Part shown: piece after piece, positions 4,148-63,412 of the stretch
Layout: every line of letters begins with the position of its first letter
How positions within the stretch are numbered: the stretch's first letter is position 1
NCBI GenBank assembly: GCA_944372505.1
Contig: CALVZK010000001.1
Location: 213,687-277,686, forward strand
DNA: 64,000 nucleotides
Reading direction: 5' to 3'
From: an uncultured Clostridia bacterium
GTDB taxonomy: Bacteria; Bacillota; Clostridia; Christensenellales; UBA1242
Position numbers and translations under genes: made by a program
The notes under the pieces: model-generated
What the model was told of the DNA's origin: nothing
The model's input: only the letters and a program-made list of their open reading frames with translations
Database searches by the model: none

Positions 4148-4155
4148 TATAAAAA

Positions 4156-4758: not shown

Positions 4759-4778
4759 GGCGTAAAAAAATAAATAAA

Positions 4779-4802
4779 AAGCACAAAATGTGCTTTTTTT
4801 AT
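4779..4802 (+). terminator. rho-independent terminator
   Basis: AAGCACA-aaa-TGTGCTT followed by T7. Confidence 0.8.
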
Positions 4803-4933
4803 TTGTTAAATAAAACATTATTAAATATTAAATTAATATTTCTTATTTTGTTAAGCTGGTATTTTATTTAATATTGTAAAAATTCTTGCATTATTTTGGC
4901 AATTGTGTTAAACTACATAAGTAGGAGAAAAAT

Positions 4934-7188: not shown

Positions 7189-7728
7189 TTATTTTTTACC
7201 ATTGACAAAATTTAAGTCATATCTTTCTATGGAATCTTTTATTATTTTTATTGCTTTTTCTCTGCCTCCCAATTTTTCAACATGCACTACTTTGTTTTCC
7301 AATTGTTTGTAAACTGTTAAAAAATGTTTTAATTCCTCAAATAAATGTTTAGGTAAATCTGCAATATCTTTAAAATCATTATATTGTGGATCTCCAAAAG
7401 GAATTGCTATAATTTTTTCATCATATTCGTTCCTATCAGTCATCATAACTACACCTATTGGATAACATCTAACTAAACTTAGCCTTGCAAGAGGTTGACT
7501 GCATAAAACAAATACATCTAATGGATCATTATCTTCACTATAAGTCAAAGGAATAAAACCATAATTCATTGGATATAAAGTACTAGTATATAATACTCTA
7601 TCTAAAATTAAAAAACCTGTTTCTTTATCGAGTTCATACTTTGTTTTATCCCCTTGTTGTATTTCTATACATGCAATAAAATCTTCTGGATTAATTCTTT
7701 CTTTTGAAATTTCTTTCCAAATATTCAT
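7189..7728 (-). CDS. ppa: inorganic pyrophosphatase, family I
   Basis: GGAGG SD then ATG 7728. YPMNYGFIP and EDNDPLDVFVL signature. Confidence 0.9.
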   Translation of the reverse strand: MNIWKEISKERINPEDFIACIEIQQGDKTKYELDKETGFLILDRVLYTSTLYPMNYGFIPLTYSEDNDPLDVFVLCSQPLARLSLVRCYPIGVVMMTDRNEYDEKIIAIPFGDPQYNDFKDIADLPKHLFEELKHFLTVYKQLENKVVHVEKLGGREKAIKIIKDSIERYDLNFVNGKK

Positions 7729-7809
7729 TTTTTCCTCCAATTACATTTTAAAATAATTTTATCCTTAAAGCAAATAATTTTTTTAAAAAAAGATGAAATA
7801 AATCATCTT

Positions 7810-17800: not shown

Positions 17801-20800
17801 ATTTCTTTAATCGACAATTCTAACACTAAGATTATTGGCAATGATTCTATTGATTATACAAATAATCCTTCTTCATTTATAACATTCAATGTTACTAGTG
17901 ATGCTGCAAGATTATCTGTTTATTACGAAAAAGACAACCAAAAAACTCAATTAATTTTTGCTAATTATAGTTTAACTGGGAAATTATATGAAAAAGATAA
18001 TTCTTATACACATAATCCAGATGAACTAGAAAATGCTAATTTAACAGATTTAACATATAAATTTTCATATTATACACCTACTAATACTGATAATTTAATT
18101 AAAATTTCATATGTTCCTTTTGCAGAAAATGGCTCAATTTTGGATTCTTTAACTTTAAAATATTATCCTTATGAAAAACAAAATGAGGAAAATGGCGATA
18201 GAAATGAATTTTATTACACAATCTCATCTTCTCCTACTAAAACGATTAATATCTATTCATACAATAAAAGTACAGTTTATGATACTGGAGAGGAACTTAT
18301 TTTTGAACTTGCTTTAGGATCTACTGATTATCCTTTGGCTGGAAGATATGTCTTAACTAGACAATATACAACTGAAAATCAAAATGGAGAAACTGACACA
18401 AATTCTTATAGTAGCTATGATTATTTTAGAAGAACAATAACTTTTGATGTAGATGACTTTAATCTAATTTCCCCTACTGAAACAATTACTTCAAACAACT
18501 ATAGCTCTTTAGAAAGTTTAGTTGGCGGGGATATCTTCGTAAATATGTATAGTGATAGTACTGATACTTCAATCCAAGTAACATTCCCTACTTACACTAA
18601 TGGCTTAAATACTGGCTCATTCTATACTAAAAATAATTTTACAAGTGAAAAAGAAACTGTAAACTATTCTGTATCTGGCGACAAACTACCTATATCATTA
18701 TATATTCCTAGCGTTAAATATACTAAATATAATAAAGTTACTAAAGATGAAAATAGCATCAATTTTGAAAACATAAAAAATGAAGTTTTATCTTACTATG
18801 GAAATGCAAAAGTAGAGCGAGGAACTGATAACCTTTGGTATGTAATTGTTGAAGGTGTTACAGATGGCAATGCTTTCACTACAGAACAAGATGCATACAA
18901 CTATTTATATAATTCCCTTACTATTGAAGAGTATAATATAAAAGCGAACATAGTTGCAAATGTAAACGGAACTAAATATTATACAACTAATGGAACAAGT
19001 GTAAATGGATTCTTACAATTCTTCGAAGCTGATGAAAAGTATAATATTATCAATAACACCCCTATTGAATATTTCTACGAAGAAGGAAATTATGAAATAA
19101 CTATAAGTCAAGCTTCTAATTTAGGCAATTTAAGTTCATTCTACTCTATTTATAAATTTGGATTCGAAATTATTTCTCAAAAACCTGACTTTGATATTAT
19201 TGGAAGCGATGGCTATCTTCTTCAAGAAGTTGGTTCAACTAATACCTATTACACCAACTCTGATATGCTTACTATACAATGGGAAATTCCTACTAGCATA
19301 TATAAAGCAAAAATAGATGAAAGTGCTATTACTATAACTTCTACTGAAGGAACTATTTTACCTAGTGAAATAGATACAAGTTCTTCTACAATTCATTCAT
19401 TTACTATTGATACGAGCACCTTAACTCATAGCACTCGTCCTAACCCTGCTTTAACAATAACAATGCAATACGAGGGATTTAATAGCAAGTATTATCAAAA
19501 AGTTACCAAAACTATATATTTTGATATTTCTGCTCCTACTGCTAATTTAGTTAATCTTATGGCATTAACTGAAAACGCAACTTCTGGAACTTTCACTCAA
19601 AATTTCCAACAATTATCTATGAGAAGATATTTTGATAATAATCATCAGGAAATTTCAATTTCTTCCTTAAATGACATATCAAATATGAGTTACTCATATT
19701 CTATGAATACTGGATATTTCAAATATTACAGTTATAATGTAAATGAAGATTTCTTCTATAAAACATTAATGGAAACTATTAATAATTCTTATCTTAACAA
19801 TTATAATACCCAATACATCTATTATAGAGAAATTGCTTCTTTAGATTCTTATAATCAAGTTGATAAGGATTCGTTCTCTACAAATTCTTATACACTTTTA
19901 ATCAATTCTTCCGATCTAGGTTTAAGACGAGGATATTATGAAATAGTTGAACGTGATTATGCTGGCAATATGTGTGTATATTTAGTTTATTTAATAGATT
20001 CTAAATCTCAAGAAACTAATCAAGATAAATATAACATTGCCTTAAATTATAAAAATTCTTCACATGAAAATAATTTTGAAATTACTAATGATGAAATTGT
20101 CGACGGATTTAATATTTACTCAAATTCTGGATTTACTATTAACTCATACAATTACAAATCAGACCCTTGGGGCATGCTTTATGTTAAGTTGGCAGGTCAA
20201 AGCGTTATAAGATATCTTCAATCCCCTTGGCTTGAAAATGGTTATATTTACAAAATGACTATTAGTTCTAGTGGTTTCACTCTTGATTCTGTTCCATTGT
20301 CATCAATATTTGAAAATGTAAACTCTTCAAATAACAAACATACATTAACTTTATCGGATAGAACTACAGGTTACGCTAATACAATTTATCTTTCTATAAT
20401 GGACGCCTCAATTAATACCCAAAAAATTGAAGATCCTAATAAAACTTCTGTAATTCTTAATATATCCGTTCCTTCTTTGAGTGAGTATAATAGTACTACT
20501 ACAAGTTACGTTTTCCCTGAAAAAATTAACATCTATAGATTTGACAATATTGAAGGTGTTGCAAGTTGGAATTTGATTTATATTGCCAATCAAAATCCTT
20601 ACGGAACTTGGACCCCTGATTCTTCTACACCTTCAGATTCAATTTCTTTTAATACCATAAATTCTGACCATACTCTTCAAATCATTATAAATATGGGCAA
20701 TTACTCAACTTCTAAAATTAAATTCGAAATTACAGATAATTTTGATAACAATACAACAATAATTCAATTAGCAAATGAAATAGCTTATGATCAGATAAGT

Positions 20801-23119
20801 GGCAATGGTGAAATTTATCAAATAACTGAATATGATGGATCTATCACTTACATATCTAATGAAACCTTAAAGTTCTCATTTAACAAACTTCTTTATAATA
20901 TTTCTATATTTAATCAAAACAATCAAGATATTACTCAAAATATGATTGTTGTTGACAATCCTGCTACAAATATTTCTTACTATCTATTTGAACCAACAAC
21001 AGATAATATATGGAATGATTATTATAAAATTGTAATTTCTGATAGCGAAACTATGCTAGAAATTGATACCCTACACCTAAGATTATATTATGTTCTACCA
21101 TTTATTACTGATCTTTATAACGAAGTCTCAAATGGAGGAATACTTTTTAGCGACAACCGTTCACAACCATTAACAGATTTTGGAGATAGCGGTGTAAAAA
21201 CAGTTTATTTTGAAGGAAAACCTTATACTAACAATGTTAAATCTTTGACCACTTATTCACAAGTTATATCTTTAAGATTTAGAGATGGACAAAGTTATGC
21301 TAATGAAGGACTATTCTCTTATCAAGATGGTTTTAGTTACAGTGTCTACTTGTCTAAAGACAATGGTCAAAATTGGACGAATATTAATAGTTCTACTTCC
21401 GCTACAACAGCCTATACACTTAATGGTACTGGAACATATTTGTTACTTATAAAATATGACAGTGATGAAATATTTACAGATTTATGTCAAATTTACCAAA
21501 TTAATATTTTAGATAGCAAGGCTTCTTATTATTATATATCTGTTGATGGTTTAGAAGTAAAAAGAAACGATATTAAATTCACTGACCAAAATGGCAAAGA
21601 ATATGAAGTTAATTATATCGTTAGCGTAAACTATGCAGATAAAAATAATAGATTAGCGATCGTCCCTAACGAAGAACTCAATGTAGTTTGCAATCTTGTA
21701 TCAACACAAACAACTGGAACAGAAGTCTATGTCGAAATTTATCATTATGAATGTTCTCAAGCTAGAGGAGACTTTACTATTATTTATATCGAAGAAAACA
21801 ACAATTTTGTAAGCCAATTTACTTACGAAACTGCTAGCGGAACAGATGAAAACATTAAATCAAGTTCTTCTGTTGTTGTAGTTGCTAACAGCGAAACTGA
21901 AAGCAATTTTAATAAATTAAAACTTGAATTTACATCATATTATGGAATTAAAGAAAATTCTATAAATATAAAAGTTCTTAAATTGTTCAATGGAACATAT
22001 GTCGAAATATTCCCAACTAAATATACATCTGGAGATCTTTCTTATATTTATCTCGAAAAAGCAGGTTCTTATAGAGTTAGCCTATATGATTCTTGCACCC
22101 CTGCTAATGTTCAATTATTTAAAAATGGTGAGTATCTTGATATAATTTTCCTAAACTATACACCTTTTATTGTTACCTATTATACAGGAACTGGTGAACA
22201 ACAAGTAGAACATAAAACAGAGTTTGTTCAAAATGCTGTTTATAATGGTAATGTTGTTCTAGGTCTGACCAACCTATCAACTTATTATCAACTTGCCGGC
22301 TACCCTGTCATTTCAGTCAAACTGAATGGACAAAATTATAAAAATTATGAATCCAAAAATAATGTCTATACCTTCTCACAACCTGGCTACTATTCTATTA
22401 CATTTACGGCTACAAGTACAACAGGTGTTCCTATTAGACAACAAGAATTTAACTTTACAATTATAAATCAAAATGAATCAAGATTTGCCTATGAATTCCC
22501 TCAATTTGAAAATTATTATATTGAAAAAATTACTAAAGATGGAATTGATATCACTCAATCTCTAATCGAAATTTCAAATTTAAAAACTATTTCAATAAAT
22601 GGTAATAAATACCTAGCAGAACTTATAGTAAATTATCTTGATCAAAAAACTGGTGCTGGCAGATATGAAGTTACAATAAATACTAATGATAAATCTTATA
22701 TTAATACTACAGACGAGAAATTTACATTTAGTTTCTGGATTAACAAAGCTACTCCTCCTATTAACATCTCGGTTGCAGAAGGTCAAAGTACAACTGACAA
22801 TATAACAATCTCGTTTAATGTTCAAAACTTATACAATGCAATTGGTGACTGTTACTTTAAAATTGATAATACTAGACTTGATATAACAAGTGAAACAATC
22901 CCTACTTTAGGTAATAATTTAGTTTATACAATAGACCAAACAGGTACGTATTATGTACAAATTTATTCTATGAGTGGACATTTACTCTTCTCTTATAAAG
23001 TAACAAAAGAAGAACCTTTAAATGCTTTTGCAATCATTGCCATTGTATTGGGAGTTGTTGCCGCTGGCGCAATCATTGGAATCACAATTGCAATTAGAAA
23101 AAAACAAAAAATTAAATAA
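14816..23119 (+). CDS. giant (2767 aa) surface protein with N-terminal signal peptide and C-terminal TM anchor
   Basis: A single uninterrupted ORF. The N-terminus KKIFYSLIFSFALLSSICLGAF is signal-like. The C-terminus AFAIIAIVLGVVAAGAIIGITIAIRKKQKIK is a TM anchor with a positive tail. The body is Asn/Thr/Ser/Tyr-rich and beta-like. Confidence 0.8.
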   Translation: MIRVKKIFYSLIFSFALLSSICLGAFLKSNPNNTLNYSSAQTPTYGFISNALPTEGYFNISSTEDVGYVGNEAFLFNPNSNLTLNIAQNTIANGEEKNFAYIPSGQPQEGETAQEYYYFNFQNSLSLFYNLTNEQIASGQSGTNILTDTPITNFAKENENPFTVEGINITPEQFNLIFALNTALEECQISNEKITLNKEGIYTLQIPLTYYYTNNGGITFNSKSVTINYTFMIFNSTTYFNNTTGLQNILIDDNMQESTISTSETFSRYYFYNYSHYASVKELPKISYNPNLYRISISYTDIEKNTTFSTVVYENNVLTQYDVNGNVIDEENYFIYPVLDTNGNISIYFNDLGNYDISFEYLYISSSNETSTIYKLPFENLLGDVNIQNKNQRLYIYGYQLAYSDYSSLDPLTNQPEGVELKTLSIDQNGGKYENNADITSEVNECMGENGLHGNMSSPSQPNPYENLQTFALNYINSKNIIPVSTNQTPIKFLNNVNAVSTYSKIYNVSVNDDGKYTLDEGTDFQGFNQNTAGTYLYIIQYTYDNYMSTSGTLQQSYYHYQIFFFEVTNITPTITVLDESFNEIYNNGYTNQSVYVLNDAENNIYDAKITITLSAYDYSNKKHFFENVNVNDLNKYGMSYGIFNNPDNDEINGKYGFKIDNTSQYANAKFTVKISTLSSSSPGIKEFTIDTNEITGITTRNVQSSTGTQYIISSNFSQYNTNQSFIYSWNEKASGATTYGYIKRIDLESINYYSSQTSVSSLTNLLNYWIRQQIFPVSYKLNIANSSNWRDYQNSFNYSNVIDATYVLSTSGLYILEIYDKAGNSAFYLTLLDDSQPVFVQISSGMTTSYQILTNSQTISIPEDGTNISINWGNKKAIYLDNKSNYTEIKPYSATLNLSQAKENLQECLKNFFEASQNPDILNVSGAISVPTVSGEDVIETGISSYNGDYLLIDIKEKAYVKDTMSSTLSAYIGNSYDIDFIDDNGKAIEGTYIISLIDNSNTKIIGNDSIDYTNNPSSFITFNVTSDAARLSVYYEKDNQKTQLIFANYSLTGKLYEKDNSYTHNPDELENANLTDLTYKFSYYTPTNTDNLIKISYVPFAENGSILDSLTLKYYPYEKQNEENGDRNEFYYTISSSPTKTINIYSYNKSTVYDTGEELIFELALGSTDYPLAGRYVLTRQYTTENQNGETDTNSYSSYDYFRRTITFDVDDFNLISPTETITSNNYSSLESLVGGDIFVNMYSDSTDTSIQVTFPTYTNGLNTGSFYTKNNFTSEKETVNYSVSGDKLPISLYIPSVKYTKYNKVTKDENSINFENIKNEVLSYYGNAKVERGTDNLWYVIVEGVTDGNAFTTEQDAYNYLYNSLTIEEYNIKANIVANVNGTKYYTTNGTSVNGFLQFFEADEKYNIINNTPIEYFYEEGNYEITISQASNLGNLSSFYSIYKFGFEIISQKPDFDIIGSDGYLLQEVGSTNTYYTNSDMLTIQWEIPTSIYKAKIDESAITITSTEGTILPSEIDTSSSTIHSFTIDTSTLTHSTRPNPALTITMQYEGFNSKYYQKVTKTIYFDISAPTANLVNLMALTENATSGTFTQNFQQLSMRRYFDNNHQEISISSLNDISNMSYSYSMNTGYFKYYSYNVNEDFFYKTLMETINNSYLNNYNTQYIYYREIASLDSYNQVDKDSFSTNSYTLLINSSDLGLRRGYYEIVERDYAGNMCVYLVYLIDSKSQETNQDKYNIALNYKNSSHENNFEITNDEIVDGFNIYSNSGFTINSYNYKSDPWGMLYVKLAGQSVIRYLQSPWLENGYIYKMTISSSGFTLDSVPLSSIFENVNSSNNKHTLTLSDRTTGYANTIYLSIMDASINTQKIEDPNKTSVILNISVPSLSEYNSTTTSYVFPEKINIYRFDNIEGVASWNLIYIANQNPYGTWTPDSSTPSDSISFNTINSDHTLQIIINMGNYSTSKIKFEITDNFDNNTTIIQLANEIAYDQISGNGEIYQITEYDGSITYISNETLKFSFNKLLYNISIFNQNNQDITQNMIVVDNPATNISYYLFEPTTDNIWNDYYKIVISDSETMLEIDTLHLRLYYVLPFITDLYNEVSNGGILFSDNRSQPLTDFGDSGVKTVYFEGKPYTNNVKSLTTYSQVISLRFRDGQSYANEGLFSYQDGFSYSVYLSKDNGQNWTNINSSTSATTAYTLNGTGTYLLLIKYDSDEIFTDLCQIYQINILDSKASYYYISVDGLEVKRNDIKFTDQNGKEYEVNYIVSVNYADKNNRLAIVPNEELNVVCNLVSTQTTGTEVYVEIYHYECSQARGDFTIIYIEENNNFVSQFTYETASGTDENIKSSSSVVVVANSETESNFNKLKLEFTSYYGIKENSINIKVLKLFNGTYVEIFPTKYTSGDLSYIYLEKAGSYRVSLYDSCTPANVQLFKNGEYLDIIFLNYTPFIVTYYTGTGEQQVEHKTEFVQNAVYNGNVVLGLTNLSTYYQLAGYPVISVKLNGQNYKNYESKNNVYTFSQPGYYSITFTATSTTGVPIRQQEFNFTIINQNESRFAYEFPQFENYYIEKITKDGIDITQSLIEISNLKTISINGNKYLAELIVNYLDQKTGAGRYEVTINTNDKSYINTTDEKFTFSFWINKATPPINISVAEGQSTTDNITISFNVQNLYNAIGDCYFKIDNTRLDITSETIPTLGNNLVYTIDQTGTYYVQIYSMSGHLLFSYKVTKEEPLNAFAIIAIVLGVVAAGAIIGITIAIRKKQKIK

Positions 23120-31579: not shown

Positions 31580-31689
31580 CTGCTTGCTTGACAATAAATT
31601 TTGTTAGTGTTAATATAGTTGTATAAATTAATTTAATAGTTTAAACTAAAAAATTATTTTGTTAAAAAATATTAAAATTGAGGTGCATT

Positions 31690-34600
31690 ATGAATTATCC
31701 TTTTACCATTTCAAATAAAGTAGAAATTTTTGAAAATGGAGAAAAAAATTCTATAAAACAATCTATTACTATGCTGGACAATTCAGATGAGAAAAGCAAT
31801 ATTTTATTTGACTTTAAGGAAACTAAAACTAAAGATGGAACTTCATCTTCTAAATCAATTGCTCAAATAATTAATAAAGATGGTAAGACTCATTTAAAAC
31901 TCTCTCTAGCTGATAAATTGGAAAGTTTACCAGAAAATTTATCTGAAATATTATCAAATGAAGAAGGACTTGAAATTAATTGTCCCCCTCCTGCCATACG
32001 TTTAGAAAATAAAGGTTCTGAACTTGTTGTTTCTGTTTCTTCAAAAGATAAAAAACCTTATACCATTACTATTAGCACGTCGTCTATAAAAATACAAACA
32101 CAAGATGAAAGTGGAAAAAATCAAGATTTTAACATAAATCTTGATCCTAAAGAAAGCCATATTGATATTGACATACAAAGAAAAGTAGTTGAAGATTTGA
32201 TTGTTGGAGAGAATCCTCTTTACCATGATTATAAAATTCAAGGTAATACTACAAAAAATTCTATCCCTCAATCTTTATTATATCTCTATCTTCATGGTAT
32301 GGAAGATAATTCTAGTTTAGATTTAGGAAAATATAATATTACTAAATGTAGCTTCAATGATAAAGATGATCCTTTCTTTTTTATAAGAAGAGAAAACGAC
32401 ACTCTTTTATATACAAACGGAACTTTAAGAAAATGCGACAGATTCTTCTTTCAACATGATGTCGACAAGACAAGAACCCCTGCCCTTGTTATTGAAGGAG
32501 GAATAGGAAAAAATAGACCTTACTACAAAATTCCTATAAGTGATGATGAAAAATTTAATACCGCATTTGAATTAATGTTTCAAAAAGCACAACTAGATTA
32601 TGAAGATAAAAGAATTCAAAAAATTAATCCTCAAAATGGACCTCAAAAAATTTCAAATAGTACGATAATTGATCTTGTTGGCGAAAATATTTATTCTTTT
32701 AATGAAGATTTAAGGGAATATTCTATTCACAACTTCACATATAGACCAAAAACTTACACTACAGGTCTCAAAACTGAATTATCTTCTTCCGATGAATTAA
32801 TACCTGAAACAGAAACTCCTGAAGATGAAAAACCTGAAACAGAAACTCCTGAAGATGAAAAACCTGAAGATAATGACGATTCTGAAGGCGAAGCAGGAGT
32901 TATTGCACACAATGAAAATCCTCCAGATAATACAAACGATTTTGTTCCAGCTGAAATAATAGATGATAATCAAAACAACGATAACAACGACAATAATCAA
33001 CAAGATCCAAATAAAAAAACTCCTAAAAAATCTGCTAAAGAAAAAAATAGTTCCCCTATTCCACACAAAGAAATTGATAAAGAAAATGTTAAAAATGTTG
33101 CCGAATCAGTTTCATCTTCTATCATGGGTGTAGGAATTTGGTTGGGAATTTGTTGCATGATCCCAGGGGTCAATGTCATAGCTGCTATAATAGCTCTTGC
33201 ATTAGTTGTTTCTGGAGCTTTATTAAACACTTATGCAGATAAAATAGCAGATTTTAAGTTTAGATCAGCAGAAAAAAAAGTAAAAGAATACGAAGATGAA
33301 GCTAAGGACAATGCTAATTTTAAAGAAAATTTTATAGAAAATGAACATGAATTAGAAAAATTACATCAAATTTCAAATGAAAAAATCTCAAATCTTGAAA
33401 ATATGATGTCCCCTCCTGAAAACGGAGGTAACTTCGTGGCAAATACTTTTGCTCAAAATTATAATCAAAATGGTATAGGCTTTATCCACAAAGAAGATCA
33501 GCCTGAAAATTATGGCATAAAATCTTTAACTTCTATGGATTCTCTAAGTTTTAGACAATCTATTGTTGAAGATCTTAGTGCTATTAGAAATGAAACTAAT
33601 TCCGACGTTAGAAATGATTTGATTTCGAATTTTACACAAACTTATTTTACTTCTTTAGAACCTAAACAGTCTCAAAAACTTGCTGAAATGTTTTTACCAG
33701 AACATGACGAAGAACTTTCTCAATTTATAAAGGCTTTAAGTGAAACTAACAAAGCCCAGCAAGAAGAAGGTAAATTGTACGATTCACAAAAGAAAGAAAT
33801 CGAAAAATCTAATGAAAAACGTTTAAAATATCTTTTCTCTCATTCAGACCTTTCTAGAGAAGAAAGAGAACATTTCATAGATAGATATGGTTTTTCAATT
33901 TTAAAAAGTTATACAATTAACGATAATATCTCCACAGAAAAAATTGAGGCTTTAATAGACTCCTTACCTGCTGAACAAAGAGAATTTGCAGCCGCTAAAT
34001 TTTATGAAATTGCAAATGCTTCTAGGGAAAAAGTCAAAGATATTGCTACAATTGCTAAAGAAGAACATGAAAAAACTATCAAATTAGATAATTTAATACA
34101 TTTTAAAGAATCTATGCTTAAAACTTCAGATGAAAATTATTTTGCTTTCTTTTCACAATGTAAAGAAAATACCGCTGATTTTTTATTAAAATATACACAC
34201 TTAGCTTATTCTAAATCTACAGATAAATTAAAAAATAAGTTTTCGTTTTATAACAAAGACAAAACAACTCTTCTTCCTCCTAGAACAAATCCCCTTGAAG
34301 TTGTAGTTTTCCAAAAAATGAAAACTTTTATAGAAAAATCTACTGAAAGAAGTGAACTAACCGAAGAACTTATTAGTTCTCAACAACTTAAAAATGAATT
34401 TATTAAAAAATACTATGCTGAAGATATCGCAAAATTATATTTAGAAAACAAAACTAGTGACTTCTACACAGACGGAATTGCTCCTAACCCGGCAACATTT
34501 ACTTTTGCCTCAAAAGCATATTCTCAAGAAGAAATTGCAACTAAATTTGCTAAACAAGATTTAATAGACTTTATTTCCAAAAATTTCAATTTTGATAAAG

Positions 34601-36942
34601 AAAATAAAGATAAAATAATGAGAAAACTTTCAAAATCCTCTCTTACAGAACTTGTTTCAATGATAGAGTTAAATGAGGATGAAGTCGAAAATAGAAAATC
34701 TCTCACGATTACCATAGGTGACAAAAAAACTAAAGTTGAAAGATTCCCTTCAAAAGATGTCTCAAAAGAACATATTGACGCTTTTGATAGAGCAGAAAAT
34801 GCTTTCGCTTTTGGAAGCTGTTGTAAAGATTACGATAGTGTATATAATGAAAATATTGCTAGAGTTTTTGCTGATCTTTCAACATTAAATGGTACTGCTA
34901 ATCCAATAATAAAAGTAGAAGAATCAGGCAAAGGAAAAATTTCTTTTAACTATGAAATAACTAATGAAATTGGAGAAAAAAATAATGTTGCAATTCCCCT
35001 ATCATCATATATTTTAAAATATCCACAACTGAAAACTTTTCCTTTAGAAACACAAAAAAATATTATTGTCACTATGCTTTCCGCTGAATACAAATTATCG
35101 ACATTTAAACGTAAATCTATTGAAGAAAAAGATCCATTGAAAATTAGCCCGCTTCGAGAAGAGGAAAATCGTATTATAAATACTTATCAAATGGCATTAA
35201 CATTAAGTAAATCTATATTAAATGGTCAATATAGAGATGCAGTGTATCAGACAACTTTCGAACTTGGATTAGATGGCGCTTTAAGCGATGTTTCATATAA
35301 AGATGTCAAACTTGCAGCCAAAAACACAAATCAAGCATTAAATGGATTTATACATGTAGGACAAACGTTTGACTTGTTTGGTGAAGAAAATGCTAGAAAC
35401 CTACTTGAAATTTTTAACAATTTACATGAAGCTTCCCCGGAACGAGATGCCTCTGCTCTTGTTAGAGATTCTCTAGAAAAAATTATTGGGAAATATGAAC
35501 TTCCAAATGGCGAAAAATATTTAGATATCTTCAACCGACATTTCACAGATGCAACTTTTACAAAATCTGATAATAAAGATTTTGAAAAATTTATAGAAGC
35601 ACAAAGAAATACTATTGATAAACAAACACAGTTAATTTTAGATTATTACATTTCTTCTTTAGGAAAACAATTTGTTAAAAGAGAAATGAGACATCAAAGA
35701 AATGGTATTATTGACAAAACAGTCCCAACTTATGATAATTATCTAGAATTATTTTCTGAATTCGGACTTGACAAATCTGAAATAGCAAAAGTTTTAGCAG
35801 AAGCAGATGATTTTGAAAAAGGAATTGAAGAACTTATAAAAAGAGCTGGAATTTCAGATAAAGAACTTGAAAAGTTTAAAATTAAAAAAGATAAAATTAA
35901 AATTGGTCAATTTGATAAATCTACAAAAGAATTATATGGACTTTATAGAAAACAATATGATATCGATAAGGCATATTCTGAATATGACACCATTATGGAC
36001 ACACTGCTTAATGGCTCACCAGATAAAGATACTCTTGTTTCTTTGGTAGAAAGACTAGGTAATATAGATTCTAAACTTTTAAAAACATTAGGCATCAATT
36101 TAAAAGATGTGACTAAATTAATACCTAACGAAAATTTAACTAAAGAAGATTTAGAAAAACTTTCTGCCCTACATGAAAAAAATCATAAACTTTATATTAG
36201 AGGATCAACAAAATTAAAACAAGATATCATAAAAAATAACGAAATTGCACATGGCGAAACTAATTTAGATAAAAAATCTATAGAAGCTGATACAGAATAT
36301 CGTACATTCAAAGCTAGATCTTCAAAATTTAAACATGATTTTGGTATAATTTGTGATTTTATTTCTAAAAATCCTAAAAATAGCGAAATTAACAAAATTT
36401 TAGAAGCTTTCGTAAATGGAGATAATGAATTCTTTGAATTGAGAGACAAAATTGGTTTAAAGGATTTAGACGACATTAGTATTGCAGTTTTTGAAGCAGC
36501 AGGAATTGATTTAAAAAAGATATCTTCTTTAGCTAAAATAAAAAACAAATCAAAATTAATTAAAAAATTACAAATTTTAAACGATAAAATGCAAAGAAAA
36601 TTAGAACAAGAAGAAAAACGTAAGGAAAAAGAAGCTAAAGAAATTAAAACAAAAGCTAAAAAGGAAAAAGATGATAAAGCTAAAACAAATATTGGAATCA
36701 AAAATCATTCTTCTTTTGGAAATGCTTTATTAAAATTAGGTAAACTTTTCCAAAGAAAAGCAATCAAAGAAAGCGAAATACGTATTGAAAGAGAAGAGGC
36801 AAGAAAAGAAATTGATAGAGCTAAAATCCGAGAAAAAGAACATAGTGAAGAACATACTGAAGAACATGCTGAAGAACACGACGAGACTCACACTGAAGAA
36901 CCAAAAGAAGATGCTGAAGACGGCACAGAAGCTGGAAGTTAA
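31690..36942 (+). CDS. giant hypothetical protein (1750 aa) with central hydrophobic hairpin and K/E-rich helical C-terminal two-thirds
   Basis: GAGGTG SD then ATG 31690. Acidic PETETPEDEK repeats, a hydrophobic stretch GVGIWLGICCMIPGVNVIAAIIALALVVSGALL, and a C-terminal (EEHx)n His/Glu tail. Confidence 0.75.
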   Translation: MNYPFTISNKVEIFENGEKNSIKQSITMLDNSDEKSNILFDFKETKTKDGTSSSKSIAQIINKDGKTHLKLSLADKLESLPENLSEILSNEEGLEINCPPPAIRLENKGSELVVSVSSKDKKPYTITISTSSIKIQTQDESGKNQDFNINLDPKESHIDIDIQRKVVEDLIVGENPLYHDYKIQGNTTKNSIPQSLLYLYLHGMEDNSSLDLGKYNITKCSFNDKDDPFFFIRRENDTLLYTNGTLRKCDRFFFQHDVDKTRTPALVIEGGIGKNRPYYKIPISDDEKFNTAFELMFQKAQLDYEDKRIQKINPQNGPQKISNSTIIDLVGENIYSFNEDLREYSIHNFTYRPKTYTTGLKTELSSSDELIPETETPEDEKPETETPEDEKPEDNDDSEGEAGVIAHNENPPDNTNDFVPAEIIDDNQNNDNNDNNQQDPNKKTPKKSAKEKNSSPIPHKEIDKENVKNVAESVSSSIMGVGIWLGICCMIPGVNVIAAIIALALVVSGALLNTYADKIADFKFRSAEKKVKEYEDEAKDNANFKENFIENEHELEKLHQISNEKISNLENMMSPPENGGNFVANTFAQNYNQNGIGFIHKEDQPENYGIKSLTSMDSLSFRQSIVEDLSAIRNETNSDVRNDLISNFTQTYFTSLEPKQSQKLAEMFLPEHDEELSQFIKALSETNKAQQEEGKLYDSQKKEIEKSNEKRLKYLFSHSDLSREEREHFIDRYGFSILKSYTINDNISTEKIEALIDSLPAEQREFAAAKFYEIANASREKVKDIATIAKEEHEKTIKLDNLIHFKESMLKTSDENYFAFFSQCKENTADFLLKYTHLAYSKSTDKLKNKFSFYNKDKTTLLPPRTNPLEVVVFQKMKTFIEKSTERSELTEELISSQQLKNEFIKKYYAEDIAKLYLENKTSDFYTDGIAPNPATFTFASKAYSQEEIATKFAKQDLIDFISKNFNFDKENKDKIMRKLSKSSLTELVSMIELNEDEVENRKSLTITIGDKKTKVERFPSKDVSKEHIDAFDRAENAFAFGSCCKDYDSVYNENIARVFADLSTLNGTANPIIKVEESGKGKISFNYEITNEIGEKNNVAIPLSSYILKYPQLKTFPLETQKNIIVTMLSAEYKLSTFKRKSIEEKDPLKISPLREEENRIINTYQMALTLSKSILNGQYRDAVYQTTFELGLDGALSDVSYKDVKLAAKNTNQALNGFIHVGQTFDLFGEENARNLLEIFNNLHEASPERDASALVRDSLEKIIGKYELPNGEKYLDIFNRHFTDATFTKSDNKDFEKFIEAQRNTIDKQTQLILDYYISSLGKQFVKREMRHQRNGIIDKTVPTYDNYLELFSEFGLDKSEIAKVLAEADDFEKGIEELIKRAGISDKELEKFKIKKDKIKIGQFDKSTKELYGLYRKQYDIDKAYSEYDTIMDTLLNGSPDKDTLVSLVERLGNIDSKLLKTLGINLKDVTKLIPNENLTKEDLEKLSALHEKNHKLYIRGSTKLKQDIIKNNEIAHGETNLDKKSIEADTEYRTFKARSSKFKHDFGIICDFISKNPKNSEINKILEAFVNGDNEFFELRDKIGLKDLDDISIAVFEAAGIDLKKISSLAKIKNKSKLIKKLQILNDKMQRKLEQEEKRKEKEAKEIKTKAKKEKDDKAKTNIGIKNHSSFGNALLKLGKLFQRKAIKESEIRIEREEARKEIDRAKIREKEHSEEHTEEHAEEHDETHTEEPKEDAEDGTEAGS
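32803..32862 (+). repeat. perfect 2 x 30-bp tandem repeat (encodes PETETPEDEK twice)
   Basis: cctgaaacagaaactcctgaagatgaaaaa occurs twice in tandem, followed by a partial third copy. Confidence 0.9.
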
Positions 36943-59319: not shown

Positions 59320-59483
59320 TAATTATACAAATTTTAATAAAATACAACTAGAATTAGATGTAAAAAATGTGTTAATTAACTTAAACAAACAACTTAAAAA
59401 ATATTGTCAAATTTTTAAGATAATTATATAAAAAAAATTATTCGAAAAAAACATGAAAAATCGTCATTTCCTCTATATTTTAA

Positions 59484-59598
59484 TGTGGAAATGTGGATAA
59501 CTTGGGTGTATAACCCCTCTTTAGCGTCAAAAATCACCATTTTGCATAAAAATTAAATGATTTGCATAATTATTTATTTGTGGAAATGTGGATAACTT
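59484..59598. promoter_or_regulatory. DnaA-box cluster: two copies of TGTGGAAATGTGGATAACTT
   Basis: The 20-mer occurs at 59484-59503 and 59579-59598. Each holds a perfect box TGTGGATAA (rc TTATCCACA) preceded by a near-box TGTGGAAAT. A very AT-rich stretch follows. Confidence 0.65.
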
Positions 59599-59963
59599 TT
59601 AATGCAATATTTTTGCAAATTTTGTAAAAAATATTGTAAAATTGATATGATTTTTTTCAAATTTATATGTCTATTATAATGTAAATACTTTAATAATTTT
59701 TTTATAACTATTTTGTCATTTTTTTATAAATTTCTCATTCTTTTATAAAAAAACATTTGCAAATATTCTTTAGTTAATATACAATAATATTGACATAATG
59801 TTAAAAGAATTATTTGTTAAAAATTTATAATTTTTCCCCTCCCCTTTATAGTTTATCTTAACTTCAAATAAACTTACACTTACCTGAAATCGTTTTTATC
59901 GTATAAACTTTTAACTTTAAAAAGATATTCAAGTATTATATATTATTTGCATAAGGAGAATTT

Positions 59964-61277
59964 ATGATATCACCAAAACTTGTAAAACCTCGAATTTTGT
60001 CAGGTTTTATGGAATTAGCACCTTGCAAACAAATCATCTTCAATAAAATGATAGATATAATTACAAAAACTTATGAAAATGCTTGTTTTGTTCCGCTAGA
60101 TACTCCAATCTTAGAATTAAGCGAAATTCTTTTGGCTAAATCTGGAGGTGAAATAGATAAGGAAGTTTATCATTTCAATAAAGGAGATAACGACCTTTGT
60201 ATGAGGTATGACTTAACAGTTCCTCTTGCTAGGCATGTTGCCATGAATAGTGAGGCTATCTCTTTCCCGTTTAAAAGATATCAAATAGGTAAAGCCTATA
60301 GAGGAGAACGTCCTCAAAAAGGTCGTTTTAGAGAATTTGTTCAATGTGACGGAGATATTGTCGGATTAGAGGATTTACCATTAACTGCAGATGCTGAATG
60401 TATTTATATAATTAGCAAAATATTTAAAAATCTAAATTTAGATGTTTTAATCCATATATCTAATAGAAATTTATTATTTGGTTACTGTGAAGATTTAAAT
60501 ATTAAAGATACAAAAAGCGTACTTACTATTTTAGATAAAATTAATAAAATTGGTAAAGATAATGCCAAAAACGAATTGCTAAAATTAAATTTATCTGAAA
60601 CTAATTGTGAAAAACTTTTGTATATTATTTCTCTAAATGGAAACTTTCAAGATACAATAGATAAATTAACACCATTATCACAAAACCAAACTTATATATT
60701 AGGACTCAATCAAATAAAAGAACTTTATAGATATATTAAAGCTTATGAGATAAATGAAGAACAATATTGTTTGGACTTATCAATTATACGTGGACAAGAT
60801 TATTATACAGGAACAGTTTTTGAAACATTTATGAAATCTCATCCTGAATTTGGTTCTATCTGTGGAGGCGGAAGATATGATAATCTTGCTGGTTATTTCA
60901 CTGAAAAGAAAATGCCTGGTGTTGGATTAAGCATTGGGCTTACTAGACTTTTTGATTTACTTGATAAAAATAACTTACTCCCCCCTATCGCCCCAACTAA
61001 TACAAAATTACAAATTATACCTCTTGGCGATTATATAGAAGAATGTTTAAGCTTACAATCGTTCTTTTCACAAAAATTAAATTGTGAAGTTAATTATGAA
61101 AACAGATCATTTAAATCAAAAATGAAAGAAGCAGGCAAAAAACAAATTCCTTATATTTTAATAGTTGGAGAAAATGAGCATAATTCTAAAAAATATACTT
61201 TAAAAAACATGATTACAGGCGAGCAAAATTCTCTAACTAAAGAAGATTGTTTAATACAAATTAAAAATAATTTATAA
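59964..61277 (+). CDS. hisS: histidyl-tRNA synthetase
   Basis: Class II motifs: RYDLTVPLAR, YQIGKAYRGERPQKGRFREFVQCD, GGGRYDNL. Confidence 0.92.
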   Translation: MISPKLVKPRILSGFMELAPCKQIIFNKMIDIITKTYENACFVPLDTPILELSEILLAKSGGEIDKEVYHFNKGDNDLCMRYDLTVPLARHVAMNSEAISFPFKRYQIGKAYRGERPQKGRFREFVQCDGDIVGLEDLPLTADAECIYIISKIFKNLNLDVLIHISNRNLLFGYCEDLNIKDTKSVLTILDKINKIGKDNAKNELLKLNLSETNCEKLLYIISLNGNFQDTIDKLTPLSQNQTYILGLNQIKELYRYIKAYEINEEQYCLDLSIIRGQDYYTGTVFETFMKSHPEFGSICGGGRYDNLAGYFTEKKMPGVGLSIGLTRLFDLLDKNNLLPPIAPTNTKLQIIPLGDYIEECLSLQSFFSQKLNCEVNYENRSFKSKMKEAGKKQIPYILIVGENEHNSKKYTLKNMITGEQNSLTKEDCLIQIKNNL

Positions 61278-61313
61278 AAAAAGCACTCATAGTCTACACA
61301 ATTTGAAACTAGC
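61276..61313. repeat. left arm of imperfect inverted repeat bounding the FtsZ-like cassette
   Basis: AAAAAAAGCACT-14 nt-TTTGAAACTAGC. Both 12-mers recur as exact reverse complements at 63324-63360. Confidence 0.8.
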
Positions 61314-61324
61314 GGAATAATTAA

Positions 61325-61357
61325 CACTTTAATCAACTTTGGTTAAGGTGTTTTTTA
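61325..61357 (+). terminator. rho-independent terminator (likely hisS)
   Basis: CACTTTAATCAA/TTGGTTAAGGTG stem (two G.U pairs) followed by T6. Confidence 0.65.
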
Positions 61358-61485
61358 TTCTCTTAACCGCCACAAAAACAAATATTTCTGCAGTTGTCAA
61401 GGATTGTCGCAAAAGCGACATTTATTTTAACCTTGACAACAAAGAATATTCGTTTACCATAATAAAAAGAGAAGAAAAAAAATAA

Positions 61486-61532
61486 TAAAAAAGCGAAAGT
61501 GTGTTATGCTCTGTCAACACTTTCGCTTTTTG
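61486..61532. terminator. bidirectional rho-independent terminator (ends the minus-strand cassette operon)
   Basis: GCGAAAGTGT-14 nt loop-ACACTTTCGC flanked by an A-run and T5. Confidence 0.75.
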
Positions 61533-61554
61533 CTTTCATTTATTTGGTTGTAGA

Positions 61555-61612
61555 GTGTGCTTGTCTTCGGTGGAGCATTAGCTCTCACCGACTTGTATCA
61601 AGACAAGCACAC
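61555..61612 (-). other. long extended stem-loop in the 3' UTR of the FtsZ-like gene
   Basis: GTGTGCTTGTCT/AGACAAGCACAC (12 bp perfect) extended by TCGGTG/CACCGA and GAG/CTC. No U-run follows. Confidence 0.7.
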
Positions 61613-61630
61613 GTTTAAATGCCAAATCGC

Positions 61631-62362
61631 TTAATTATTGCTAAAATATTCTATAATTGGATTTAAATTATTCTTTTCGTATATAATGTTACATAAATTA
61701 TCATTTTTTAGTGTTTTTAAAATATCCTTCATTGATTTTCCTTCTATTTCCTGTGAATATATATATTTAATTACATTTGTTATGCTTAACCGCAACATTT
61801 CATCCACTTTGGCATAAACTTCAAGTATAGAAATCTTTCTAAGCTCAGGATTTTCAAATATTTTGCCTAGGGAAATCACTGCTAAACCATCAACAACCTT
61901 TTTCAATTGTTCAACGCAATCAACTGCGATTTTACACCTTCTCTTCCCTTCAAAATCAGGAGGACTTGTTGCAAATGCAATAGTAGGGATATGTAATTCT
62001 TTTGCCACCTCACAAACAACTGGTGACGCGCCAGAACCTGTTCCGCCACCAAGACCTGCCACAATAATTAGAAAAGAACAATCTTTTAACGCATCTTTTA
62101 TTTCTTCACAGTCTTCTTCTGCTGCAATTTTTCCAAATTTGGGTAAGCCACCAGAGCCCAACCCTTTGGTTGTCTTTTTACCAATTTTTACAAACCGACT
62201 TGCTTGTTCGAATTGAAAATTCCAACCAACAAACCAATCTGTGTTGATGGCCATATATTCAATATTTAGCGCTTTATTACTTCTCAAATTTTCTGTAATA
62301 TGTACTCCAGCGTCACCAACGCCTACAATTTTAATTTTAAAATTTTTATTTTGTTCTCCCAT
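61631..62362 (-). CDS. FtsZ paralog comprising only the N-terminal GTPase domain (243 aa)
   Basis: IKIVGVGDAGV, YMAINTD, GKKTTKGLGSGG and tubulin signature AGLGGGTGSGASPV align along the whole FtsZ N-domain through helix H7. The protein ends about 40 aa later, without the C-terminal subdomain or tail. Confidence 0.8.
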   Translation of the reverse strand: MGEQNKNFKIKIVGVGDAGVHITENLRSNKALNIEYMAINTDWFVGWNFQFEQASRFVKIGKKTTKGLGSGGLPKFGKIAAEEDCEEIKDALKDCSFLIIVAGLGGGTGSGASPVVCEVAKELHIPTIAFATSPPDFEGKRRCKIAVDCVEQLKKVVDGLAVISLGKIFENPELRKISILEVYAKVDEMLRLSITNVIKYIYSQEIEGKSMKDILKTLKNDNLCNIIYEKNNLNPIIEYFSNN

Positions 62363-62371
62363 TATTAATTC

Positions 62372-62941
62372 TCACAAAATATTTCTTAAAATTCTTGTTA
62401 GCTCGTCTACATACTTATTCTGATTTCCGCATGAAGGGAAGGAAGTATTAAAAGCATTAATATTTTCTGAATAACCACTCTCCAAAATCGCCGCAAAAAC
62501 TTTTTCCATGCAAGTTTTTTTTACGACAATAATATATTTTGGTGATAAAAGTTTAATTTCATTTTTCAAATCTGGTATATATTTATTTATAATTTCCCTT
62601 TTTTTACTCTTGGATTTAATAAAACCTATGGGTTCTTTGCAAACATCATACAGCCAACATTCCATTTCTTTAAATTTTGCAAGTGAAAAATCAATCCCTA
62701 CATTTTCAAAAGATTCTTTTGTATATCTGTATAGATTTGAATTCTTATCATAGAAGAAAGTTCCGCCAGATGGTCTACTTTCTCCAACAAACAAAATTTT
62801 TGTTTTGCTTGGTTTGAAATCATTTCGTTTCTTTTCAAATTTCTCTGATTCAACAATGTTTTTAAACAATAATGAGCTTTGCTCTAATTCTTTTACTCTT
62901 TTTCTTTCTATTTCTAAATCTAATAATTCAATACTTTCCAT
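62372..62941 (-). CDS. uracil-DNA-glycosylase-superfamily-fold protein (tentative) with N-terminal coiled coil
   Basis: ILFVGESRPSGGTFFY (motif A-like GExPG), WLYDVCKEP (like yiTNvvKC.P), LLSPKYIIVV and FPSCGNQ (motif B-like HPS), in the canonical order and spacing. Confidence 0.5.
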   Translation of the reverse strand: MESIELLDLEIERKRVKELEQSSLLFKNIVESEKFEKKRNDFKPSKTKILFVGESRPSGGTFFYDKNSNLYRYTKESFENVGIDFSLAKFKEMECWLYDVCKEPIGFIKSKSKKREIINKYIPDLKNEIKLLSPKYIIVVKKTCMEKVFAAILESGYSENINAFNTSFPSCGNQNKYVDELTRILRNIL

Positions 62942-62979
62942 TTATATCTCCTTTATATTTTACAAAATGCTTATAGATT

Positions 62980-63228
62980 TTAATCAGTCCTTTCAAAATT
63001 TGGATACGACTTCATATAACAACCTTTACCTTTGATAGTAACAATCTCACAACCATACTCACGAAGATAGTTTATATTGCGAGCGATTGTTTTTCTATTA
63101 CACTGTATTCCACAAAATTGACTTATTTGTTTTGCTATTTTTGTTTGATGTAACAAACATTTTTCAGAGCTTCCATATTTCAGTGCATCATAAACGTACA
63201 AAATAATAAGTTTTTTTGTTTTTGTCAT
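62980..63228 (-). CDS. stand-alone winged-HTH protein (HTH_11/YafY N-terminal-like, no WYL domain)
   Basis: LIILYVYDALKYGSSEKCLLHQTKIAKQISQFCGIQCNRKTIARNINYLREYGCEIVTIKGKGCYM. GGGAGG SD. Confidence 0.65.
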   Translation of the reverse strand: MTKTKKLIILYVYDALKYGSSEKCLLHQTKIAKQISQFCGIQCNRKTIARNINYLREYGCEIVTIKGKGCYMKSYPNFERTD

Positions 63229-63251
63229 TTTTATTTTACCTCCCTACTAAT

Positions 63252-63281
63252 ATTATAACATAAAACATGGGTCAAAATCAA
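63252..63281 (-). promoter_or_regulatory. extended -10 promoter of the cassette (TTGATT-18 nt-TGTTATAAT)
   Basis: On the minus strand: TTGATT (rc of 63276-63281), then TGnTATAAT (rc of 63252-63260), about 20 nt before the SD. Confidence 0.55.
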
Positions 63282-63293
63282 ACCATATAAAAA

Positions 63294-63323
63294 ATCTAAA
63301 CATATTTTAGTTTAGATCTTTTT
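63294..63323. terminator. insulating hairpin / bidirectional terminator at the upstream edge of the cassette
   Basis: ATCTAAAC-atatttta-GTTTAGAT flanked by A5 and cT5. Confidence 0.55.
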
Positions 63324-63360
63324 GCTAGTTTCAAAAAAGTTTACCCATAGTGCTTTTTTT
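63324..63360. repeat. right arm of imperfect inverted repeat bounding the FtsZ-like cassette
   Basis: GCTAGTTTCAAA-13 nt-AGTGCTTTTTTT, the reverse complement of the left-arm blocks. Confidence 0.8.
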
Positions 63361-63383
63361 ATTTTTTTCTTTTTTAAAAAAAT

Positions 63384-63412
63384 TTGAAATATTTATTATT
63401 TAAGTTTATACT
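63384..63412 (+). promoter_or_regulatory. putative uvrC promoter TTGAAA-17 nt-TATACT
   Basis: Good -35/-10 spacing. The -10 ends only 6 nt before the uvrC ATG, and no SD is present. Confidence 0.5.

Follow-up and report, generated by a model that had tools for sequence, protein, structure and literature searches.

A cassette that splits the hisS terminator of an uncultured Clostridia bacterium and carries winged-HTH, UDG-fold and FtsZ-fragment genes

DNA glycosylases with a uracil-DNA glycosylase (UDG) fold are established as defence proteins (PMC11078745; 10.1101/2025.10.29.685425). One of them, Brig1, has 42 non-redundant homologues and was described in a neighbourhood with an ADP-ribosylglycohydrolase and a transposase (PMC11078745). 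Divergent paralogues of the division protein FtsZ have been described as well: FtsZl1 and FtsZl2 occur beside conventional FtsZ and were judged unlikely to take part in division (PMC2875224, Makarova and Koonin 2010). Here we describe a cassette of 2,060 bp that joins a UDG-like gene to a fragment of FtsZ. It lies between hisS and uvrC in a 64-kb stretch of DNA from an uncultured Clostridia bacterium (contig CALVZK010000001.1; the whole stretch is referred to as the window) and holds three minus-strand genes, which form one operon in the order winged helix-turn-helix (HTH) protein, UDG-like protein, and FtsZ fragment. The best explanation overall, to which we assign a probability of roughly 0.55, is that this is a non-autonomous mobile cassette with conflict (defence-type) cargo.

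An insertion in the terminator between hisS and uvrC

The genes hisS (59964-61277) and uvrC (start at 63419) flank the interval, and contigs coding for the exact HisS protein of the window fall into two classes, filled and empty. Two contigs are filled like the window (L034 and L038). The empty site that the original prediction had proposed to look for in relatives was found in six others (L035, L036, L037, L039, L040, and L041), where a gap of 82 nt leads from hisS to uvrC. The empty spacer reads ...TAATAAAGCAC-TTTAT-GTGCTTTTTT... and contains an intact hairpin, AAAGCAC-TTTAT-GTGCTTTTTTT, at the place where the window has only the left arm; this 7-bp stem-loop, followed by a T-run, is the intrinsic terminator of hisS. 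For L035, L036, L037, and L039, where it was measured, identity between the filled and the empty allele is 99.7-99.8% over up to 2,275 nt of the hisS side and 97.7-99.1% over 640 nt of the uvrC side. Given this flank identity and the identical HisS proteins, presence or absence of the cassette is therefore polymorphic within one species. The two alleles are a clean natural example of insertion into the loop of a terminator, and since both are available, the mobilizing mechanism is directly testable. The empty alleles, together with the copies in unrelated contexts described below, bear out the proposal of a self-contained module inserted between two housekeeping genes, but a sporulation-linked division regulator, one of the functions originally offered, is not supported because presence of the cassette varies at strain level. 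The GC content of the cassette is no different from that of its surroundings and therefore gives no sign of foreign origin.

Two 12-mers recur in mirrored order at the ends of the interval. The outer one (AAAAAAAGCACT / AGTGCTTTTTTT) is found at 61276-61287 on the plus strand and 63349-63360 on the minus strand, and the inner one (TTTGAAACTAGC) at 61302-61313 (plus) and 63324-63335 (minus). The copies are exact reverse complements, and the spacers between the 12-mers, of 14 and 13 nt, are unrelated in sequence; both coordinates and spacers are as originally reported. Neither 12-mer has a further copy in the rest of the 64-kb window, which speaks against a common intergenic motif there. In 2,000 first-order Markov simulations of the region, which is AT-rich, a single exact inverted pair of 12 nt was unremarkable (mean of 2.9 pairs per simulation), but the mirrored two-block arrangement appeared in only one simulation, more rarely than chance would explain.

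Base-by-base comparison of the junctions across loci places the cassette at 61289-63348 (ATAGTCTACACAATTTGAAACTAGC ... GCTAGTTTCAAAAGGGTTGACCCAT). Its ends are imperfect terminal inverted repeats of 25 nt: the left one (ATAGTCTACACAATTTGAAACTAGC, 61289-61313, plus strand) pairs with the right one (63324-63348, minus strand; reverse complement ATGGGTAAACTTTTTTGAAACTAGC), and the inner 12-mer forms their core. In every locus, the similarity to the copies L013-L020 starts at the left repeat, and that to L013-L018 stops at ...CCCAT at the right. The view that the repeats bound the cassette thus stands for the inner block, which belongs to the terminal repeat, and falls for the outer block, which is flank: it consists of the arms of the hisS terminator hairpin, which was there before the cassette and was split when the cassette inserted. 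Both arms are target DNA. The left arm (A-run plus GCACT, 61276-61287, plus strand) overlaps the hisS stop codon at 61275-61277, and the right arm (AGTGC plus T-run, 63349-63360, plus strand) lies outside the cassette; the joined hisS-side and uvrC-side flanks fold at -12.2 kcal/mol. Comparison of the filled hairpin (61276-61288 and 63349-63362) with the empty one (L037, 6300-6345) shows at least 3 differences within 25 nt, against 99.8% identity of the flanks. In the filled allele, 14 nt of the left arm pair perfectly with the right arm, a hint that the stem was repaired or converted as the cassette inserted.

Copies elsewhere were sought by scanning one genome per species with an alignment of the UDG-like protein. 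The triad of HTH, UDG-like, and FtsZ-fragment genes was found in eleven metagenome-assembled genomes (MAGs) labelled as uncultured Clostridia, Firmicutes, or Christensenella. In eight of these (L013-L020, which are GTDB species representatives), the cassette shares 96.7-98.3% nucleotide identity with that of the window, and the similarity runs from about 61274-61289 to about 63349-63401 in window coordinates, ending a few bases from the inverted repeats. No hisS or uvrC gene lies near these eight copies. Their flanks match neither one another nor the window, and no further empty sites were recoverable for them. There are at least nine distinct insertion sites, with several contigs stopping at or within the cassette. 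The cassette has thus spread recently between related uncultured Clostridia. The eight close copies contain no internal stops and show ratios of nonsynonymous to synonymous polymorphism (pN/pS) of 0.4-0.5 for all three genes, which have therefore been kept functional. That the cassette is mobile and has been inserted here we consider very probable.

No direct target duplication is present at any of the six insertions for which both flanks are available. The flanks at the sites other than hisS have different sequences, yet the two flanks of a site are again inverted repeats of each other, one carrying an A-run and the other a T-run, as in L017 (AAAAAATAAGGG / CCCTTATTTTTT), L018 (AAAAAAAGAAAGTT / AACTTTCTTTTTTT), and L016 (CAACTA / TAGTTG). 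When the targets were rebuilt by joining both flanks of each insertion, four of the six folded as hairpins of the type A-run/stem-loop/T-run (-5 to -12 kcal/mol, z of -2.6 to -5.8), and in these four the junction is located in or at the loop. Wherever a flanking gene is visible, the insertion lies no more than about 100 nt from its stop codon, and the genes are convergent or tandem. Since a subterminal hairpin and a T-run are found inside each end of the cassette, splitting the terminator would not have to cause read-through. Landing in a terminator while bringing replacement terminators along may represent a safe-harbour strategy.

None of the three genes encodes a recombinase, and the cassette is presumably moved in trans by an enzyme encoded elsewhere. 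As a short element with terminal repeats, passenger genes, no transposase, and many sites, it resembles mobile insertion cassettes (MICs) and miniature inverted-repeat transposable elements (MITEs). However, DDE-moved MICs and MITEs leave target duplications, and the absence of these from all six insertions argues against a DDE transposase. Lack of target duplication and possession of subterminal hairpins are shared with derivatives of IS200/IS605 (palindrome-associated transposable elements, PATEs). Those elements have no terminal inverted repeats and a fixed flanking tetra- or pentanucleotide, whereas the cassette has 25-nt terminal repeats, which argue against a classical IS200/IS605 derivative, and no fixed flanking tetranucleotide is evident at its insertions. 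The insertion sequences IS1397 and ISKpn1 insert into the loops of repetitive extragenic palindromic (REP) elements and duplicate their target. Insertion of the cassette into the loops of unrelated terminator hairpins recalls this behaviour, but leaves no duplication. Two further known modes were rejected: the ends of the cassette are unlike the attC sites of integron cassettes and it has its own promoter, and its target sequences are too diverse for targeting of the IS110/bridge-RNA kind.

At the metK locus of L022, which holds a diverged triad (75%), an IS200-type element (7345-8010; Y1_Tnp, Pfam E of 3e-37) lies directly 3' of the terminator. The 5' untranslated region of its tnpA forms a stem-loop that sequesters the ribosome-binding site; the loop has GTAGTCTACACAA, a 12-nt match to the left tip of the cassette, and the reverse complement of GTAGTCTACACAA is found 3' of tnpA. 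This transposase is one lead on the mobilizer. A Y1 tnpA with the tip match occurs only beside this diverged copy, and tblastn with the L022 TnpA detected it neither in the window nor in any other locus compared. Scanning for the left tip itself gave no matches in IMG/VR viral contigs and 14 in JGI metagenomes, all of which are chance matches within coding sequences (QFETSG), with the cassette in none.

The operon and its three proteins

The operon begins with the 82-aa winged-HTH protein (62980-63228, minus strand), continues with the 189-aa UDG-fold protein (62372-62941, minus), and ends with the 243-aa FtsZ fragment (61631-62362, minus). Profile matches and the model of the UDG fold agree with the domains that had been assigned to the three genes. 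The start of the FtsZ fragment is located 9 nt after the UDG-like stop codon and has only a weak ribosome-binding site of its own, which suggests coupled translation and a 1:1 partnership of the two proteins. A fusion of the two by read-through of the TGA codon was considered, since both genes share one reading frame, but the window uses TGA as a stop codon. The fusion is also ruled out by L023, which has TAA and further stops at this position, and by L042 and L043, in which the genes are out of frame.

An extended -10 promoter, an upstream hairpin, and a bidirectional terminator had all been proposed for the operon and could be located at 63281-63252, 63290-63323, and 61490-61529, respectively. 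The promoter, on the minus strand, was identified by a promoter scan and consists of a -35 box TTGATT, 18 nt, and an extended -10 box TG-n-TATAAT. Its -35 box is overlapped by an imperfect palindrome, ATGGGTCAAAATCAAACCAT (promoter and palindrome together, 63252-63290, minus strand), which is presumed to be an operator. The promoter motif is kept in L002, L022, L042, L043, L061, and L078, with a palindrome consensus of CATGGGTTGATTTTnTCCCATG. Upstream of the promoter, the subterminal hairpin (AAAAATCTAAAC ... GTTTAGATCTTTTT, 63290-63323) is a putative insulator that would shield the promoter from outside transcription, and the same succession of hairpin and promoter occurs in L002 and L043. 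The right tip of the cassette (63337-63348, GGGTTGACCCAT in most copies) resembles the operator palindrome (63269-63290, ATGGGT...ACCCAT). Given this resemblance, the HTH protein might also bind the cassette end.

Downstream of the genes lies a non-coding tail of 352 nt, which folds with a z of -7.5 relative to shuffled sequences and is 96.5-99% conserved among copies. Directly 3' of the stop codon of the FtsZ fragment is a 58-nt two-tier hairpin with a 13-bp outer stem and an inner stem (61555-61612, minus strand). It is followed by the intrinsic terminator of the operon (61490-61529, minus; sequence and fold), with a 13-bp stem AAAGCGAAAGTGT / ACACTTTCGCTTT that is flanked by an A-run and a T-run and could thus potentially act in both directions. 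Further on are a nested inverted repeat, GTTGTCAAGG ... CCTTGACAAC, around TGTCGC/GCGACA (61392-61441), the inner stem of which was picked up by the terminator scan, and a subterminal hairpin of 13 pairs followed by a T-run, TTTTTTATT (61323-61352, plus strand; terminator scan). The latter is readable as a plus-strand terminator and would stop read-through from hisS. Comparison of the region with Rfam gave nothing at gathering score, and matches by E-value were far below the family thresholds; the structured tail is therefore not a known RNA. No tRNA lies near the cassette.

The winged-HTH protein gives weak matches to HTH_11 and to the N-terminal domain of BirA. It is 74-94% identical in 34 of 35 database clusters, including cassettes with different cargo, and stays at 75-83% identity where the FtsZ fragment falls to 40-58%. 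The same HTH gene with its promoter and operator heads unrelated mobile cargo in the clade. We read it as a regulator of mobile-element cargo, probably an autorepressor. In L058-L067, the HTH gene accompanies a 278-aa protein without Pfam match in at least ten contexts. L061 contains tandem HTH/278-aa units (3331-5245) bounded by direct repeats of about 100 bp that copy a tRNA 3' end (..CCGCTCCGCCA), and this array adjoins a serine recombinase and Rep genes. A five-gene set headed by the HTH gene, with 98-aa, 153-aa, DUF1810, and DUF4268 proteins, is found in L068-L075. The DUF4268 protein of this set matches the PADLOC candidate defence family PDC-S11.

The UDG-like protein has an N-terminal helix of 40 residues. 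It scores 23.7 bits with the UDG superfamily profile (PF03167; cut-off 24.3 bits, E of 5e-5), and other family members score 17-22 bits. Its AlphaFold model has a predicted local distance difference test (pLDDT) value of 91. In Foldseek comparisons with the PDB, the top 25 matches are all SMUG1, MUG, TDG, or UdgX structures (probability 1.00, TM of about 0.5), and the leading matches in a viral library are UDGs or the UDG domains of phage polymerases. The model thus predicts an alpha/beta UDG fold with a central parallel sheet that superposes on solved UDGs. Motifs of the family are LFVGESRP..FFY, GCWLYDVC, YIIVVKK, and FPxCG, and G53-E54-S55-x-P57 followed by F62-F63-Y64 is invariant. We take the segment G53-P57 together with F62-Y64 to resemble motif 1 of family 4/UdgX (GE.PG) plus the stacking aromatic residue, and the C-terminal motif F168-P169-S presumably corresponds to the H-P-S of classical UDGs.

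A profile search of 1.84 billion representatives showed the family to comprise 809 clusters (E <= 1e-10, clusters at 50% identity), mostly of 160-180 aa and stand-alone, and neither Pfam nor NCBIfam has a model dedicated to it. Several homologues are found in company that points to conflict: one beside two GmrSD-family genes, DUF4238, RhuM, MobL, and an integrase (L005); one directly after Cas3 and a CRISPR array of 25 repeats (L029); one, with a fused C-terminal extension, adjoining a C5 cytosine methylase (L028); two inside prophages (L012 and L030); one between a Macro-domain gene and an ADP-ribosylglycohydrolase, with a DDE transposase nearby (L026); and one overlapping an FtsK/HerA-type ATPase that matches the SspH, mad8, and HerA defence models (L009). 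Fusion partners within the family are HARE-HTH, RHH/UPF0175, and a Zn-ribbon, all below threshold and thus weak hints.

The FtsZ fragment consists of the GTPase domain and helix H7, followed by about 35 unrelated residues. It matches the Tubulin/FtsZ GTPase profile PF00091 with an E of 9e-30, reaches 180 bits with the ftsZ model TIGR00065 (cut-off 295 bits) over model positions 14-209 of 353 only, and is 35-41% identical to full-length FtsZs. Its family is small, with members of 200-250 aa, and is found only in metagenomes and MAGs. We compared the fragment with FtsZ of B. subtilis and T. maritima and with an alignment of the short family and full-length FtsZs (A2). The fragment keeps T3, the GGGTGSG signature, which is invariant in the alignment, T5, the equivalents of D46 and R143, and the aromatic residue and Asp of H7. 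T1 is GGGG in full-length proteins and GD(A/Y/C)G in the short family (GDAG in the window). The PND motif of T6 is lost, and T7, INLDFAD in full-length FtsZ, reads I(E/K)(G/E)KSMK; INLDFADV aligns with IEGKSMKDI, and no member of the short family retains either aspartate. Neither the C-terminal domain nor the C-terminal peptide is present: there is no match to PF12327 and no DIPAFLRR-type tail, and the protein stops about 40 residues after H7. In the AlphaFold model (pLDDT 84.7), it ends with a long H7, two short helices, and a strand. As it departs from FtsZ in three defining features, the fragment is not an FtsZ orthologue.

These losses can be read against what is known of FtsZ, in which the catalytic water at the site of the neighbouring subunit is held by D210 and D213 of T7, monomers use their GTP-bound top face to join the growing filament end, and mutants of the bottom interface are toxic and stop cells from dividing (PMC8936486). 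A protein with a top face only is therefore a plausible capper of filament ends. By analogy, the predicted end-capping and arrest of division would equal the effect of bottom-interface mutants and of cappers. The known FtsZ inhibitors SulA and MciZ are unrelated small proteins, unlike the fragment, which is closely related to the GTPase domain of true FtsZ and keeps the elements of its top face. A natural FtsZ domain without T7 would also be a candidate end-capper for studies of FtsZ treadmilling. FtsZl1 likewise has no filament-forming elements. FtsZl1 and FtsZl2, however, have long C-terminal domains that are coiled-coil or alpha-helical, lie in operons with vWA, OmpA, and kinase genes, and are predicted to be membrane-associated, whereas the fragment is a bare GTPase domain of 200-250 aa that closely resembles genuine FtsZ in sequence and has DNA enzymes as its partners on a mobile cassette. 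Membership in either group was rejected on account of this difference in architecture.

In L003 (5394-5480) and L004, the N-terminus of the fragment gene, including the T1 loop, is lost through disruption of the frame. A 175-aa Zn-ribbon protein takes the place of the HTH gene there, and cpYpsA/YpsA-family genes adjoin; this looks like a decaying or remodelled copy. The best "phage" match to the fragment (H2) was rejected, being a full-length bacterial ftsZ in a division and cell wall (dcw) cluster on an unverified contig. L077 (MT835527.1, 47712-53478), labelled "Bacteriophage sp.", contains a bacterial murD-ftsW-ftsQ-ftsZ division cluster and is probably a bacterial contig, not phage.

A defence-type reading and its rivals

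In sister cassettes (L078, L002, and L043), the HTH gene and the FtsZ fragment are kept and a Zn-ribbon/GIY-YIG nuclease replaces the UDG-like gene. In L078, this is a 261-aa protein with a Zn-ribbon and a GIY-YIG domain (PF20815, 23.1 bits against a cut-off of 22.4), and parts of such a nuclease are present in L002, L043, and L042. The FtsZ fragment thus pairs with a UDG-like or a GIY-YIG protein, while the UDG-like protein pairs with the FtsZ fragment or an FtsK-type ATPase or stands alone. Such combinatorial swapping of partners is typical of conflict systems.

We propose that the HTH protein would repress the promoter by way of the palindrome that overlaps its -35 box and that the two downstream proteins would constitute a conflict module of the type directed against phages or other mobile genetic elements. 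On derepression, the UDG-fold protein might attack the DNA of the invader in the manner of Brig1 and Brig2, removing a base that is probably non-canonical. Its GTP-binding partner would be the FtsZ fragment, which could cap the growing ends of host FtsZ filaments, thereby halting division during the attack on DNA; alternatively, the fragment may control the effector as a sensor or decoy that resembles FtsZ and depends on GTP. By analogy, Brig1 and Brig2 would be the nearest functional counterparts of the effector. Like it, they are small UDG-fold proteins that are recognizable mainly by structure and are found in defence islands and mobile elements, and the proposed excision of a non-canonical base from invading DNA would be common to all; the comparison is one of shared fold and genomic context alone. 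The ADP-ribosylglycohydrolase and the transposase that neighbour Brig1 are also found near the UDG-like homologue of L026. The systems differ in that Brig1 and Brig2 act as single genes, whereas the UDG-like protein appears to be translationally coupled to the FtsZ fragment (in L009, to the FtsK-type ATPase) and is under an HTH regulator, and the 809 clusters of its family compare with 42 non-redundant homologues of Brig1.

Taken by itself, a defence-type function of the cargo, as suggested by these sequence contexts, has slightly less than an even chance. A more specific version, in which an FtsZ domain without T7, acting as sensor, decoy, or filament-capping executioner, is coupled 1:1 with a swappable DNA-lesion enzyme in a two-part immune or abortive module, carried by a new kind of cassette that inserts into terminator loops without duplicating them and brings its own terminators as replacement, is possible but must be called tentative, at clearly lower odds. 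There is a real chance that the FtsZ-fragment partner and the mode of insertion are new in kind. The gene combination has no match in PADLOC, among NCBIfam equivalogs, in PHROG, or in the literature, consistent with its having been put forward as undescribed, and full-text literature searches turned up no defence system that had been described with an FtsZ-like component. If the proposal is correct, this would be the first mobile conflict system to have recruited part of a bacterial cytoskeletal protein, and attack on DNA would be tied directly to division control by a route other than the SOS response. It would also give a function to a large uncharacterized UDG-fold family and extend the recent finding of DNA glycosylases as antiviral effectors.

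Several observations weigh against the proposal. None of the three proteins is covered by a model in PADLOC 2023 (PADLOC-DB 2.0.0), which gave only noise for the HTH protein. The sequence match of the UDG-like protein to its superfamily is below threshold, no solved structure matches the family profile by sequence, and because the motif-2 His is replaced by Phe (FPSCG), glycosylase activity is not assured. In the FtsZ fragment, T1 has changed from GGGG to GDAG, so that GTP binding is no more than likely. Close relatives of the UDG-like protein and of the FtsZ fragment are absent from 50,697 phage records, and the single match of the former among 72,556 plasmid records is a Spirosoma hypothetical protein of 25% identity in an uninformative context. 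Regarding mobility, no transposase or related element with the terminal repeats was found in the window, the collected loci, IMG/VR, or the JGI metagenomes; two of the six rebuilt targets are not hairpins; and the filled and empty hisS alleles differ beyond a simple insertion.

The strongest rival, which we nevertheless regard as unlikely, is that the operon is a selfish maintenance or host-manipulation module. The FtsZ fragment would then be a division-blocking toxin, held in check by the HTH protein, the upstream protein, or both, and the cassette would persist by addiction or by brief arrest of division. Kil and DicB, two inhibitors encoded by prophages, arrest division in this way. An intact nucleotide-binding top face without T7 or a bottom face is the configuration reported to be toxic, the operon is small, tightly regulated, and located on a mobile element, and loss of the N-terminus in L003 and L004 is what would be expected of a costly gene. 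A simple toxin, however, would not need the DNA-acting enzyme, UDG-like or GIY-YIG, that accompanies the fragment in every case. Most members of the UDG-like family stand alone, in defence or prophage contexts, no small antitoxin-like partner is evident, and the pN/pS values, with no pseudogenes in the eight close copies, suggest selection on all three genes.

It is considerably less probable that the cargo serves the movement of the cassette itself, with the HTH protein binding the ends and the DNA enzyme lesioning or nicking target hairpins, either in a homing-like process or in a novel form of transposition. GIY-YIG domains are classic homing nucleases, and it is a GIY-YIG protein that replaces the UDG-like gene in the sister cassettes. 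The cassette clearly moves, yet has no recombinase gene, its right tip GGGTTGACCCAT resembles the palindromic operator of the promoter, and sequence changes cluster at the filled junction. Homing, however, needs homologous flanks, and the eight insertions share none. Moreover, most members of the UDG-like family occur without the HTH protein, the FtsZ fragment, or the repeats, the HTH gene also heads cargo in elements with a serine recombinase of their own, and the FtsZ fragment has no obvious role in DNA transfer. Finally, it is highly improbable that these are accessory division or DNA-repair genes passed on by vertical descent, such as a sporulation-linked FtsZ regulator and a repair glycosylase between repeats that are ordinary terminators: the outer repeat is truly an ordinary terminator and the GC content is that of the surroundings, but this reading is contradicted by empty alleles at 99.7-99.8% flank identity, by a cassette that is 97-98% identical at non-homologous sites in eight other species, and by an FtsZ fragment well under the ftsZ equivalog cut-off.

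Other features of the window

Two giant open reading frames, at 14816-23119 (2,767 aa) and 31678-36942 (1,754 aa), have no Pfam match at E <= 1e-5. An intergenic stretch of 640 bp with 18-21% GC (59320-59963) separates hisS from a UvrD-like helicase gene, just downstream of gyrB and gyrA. Two of only three perfect DnaA boxes (TTATCCACA) in the window lie within it, at 59492-59500 and 59587-59595, both on the minus strand, and on this basis the stretch may be an oriC-type or DnaA-regulated region.

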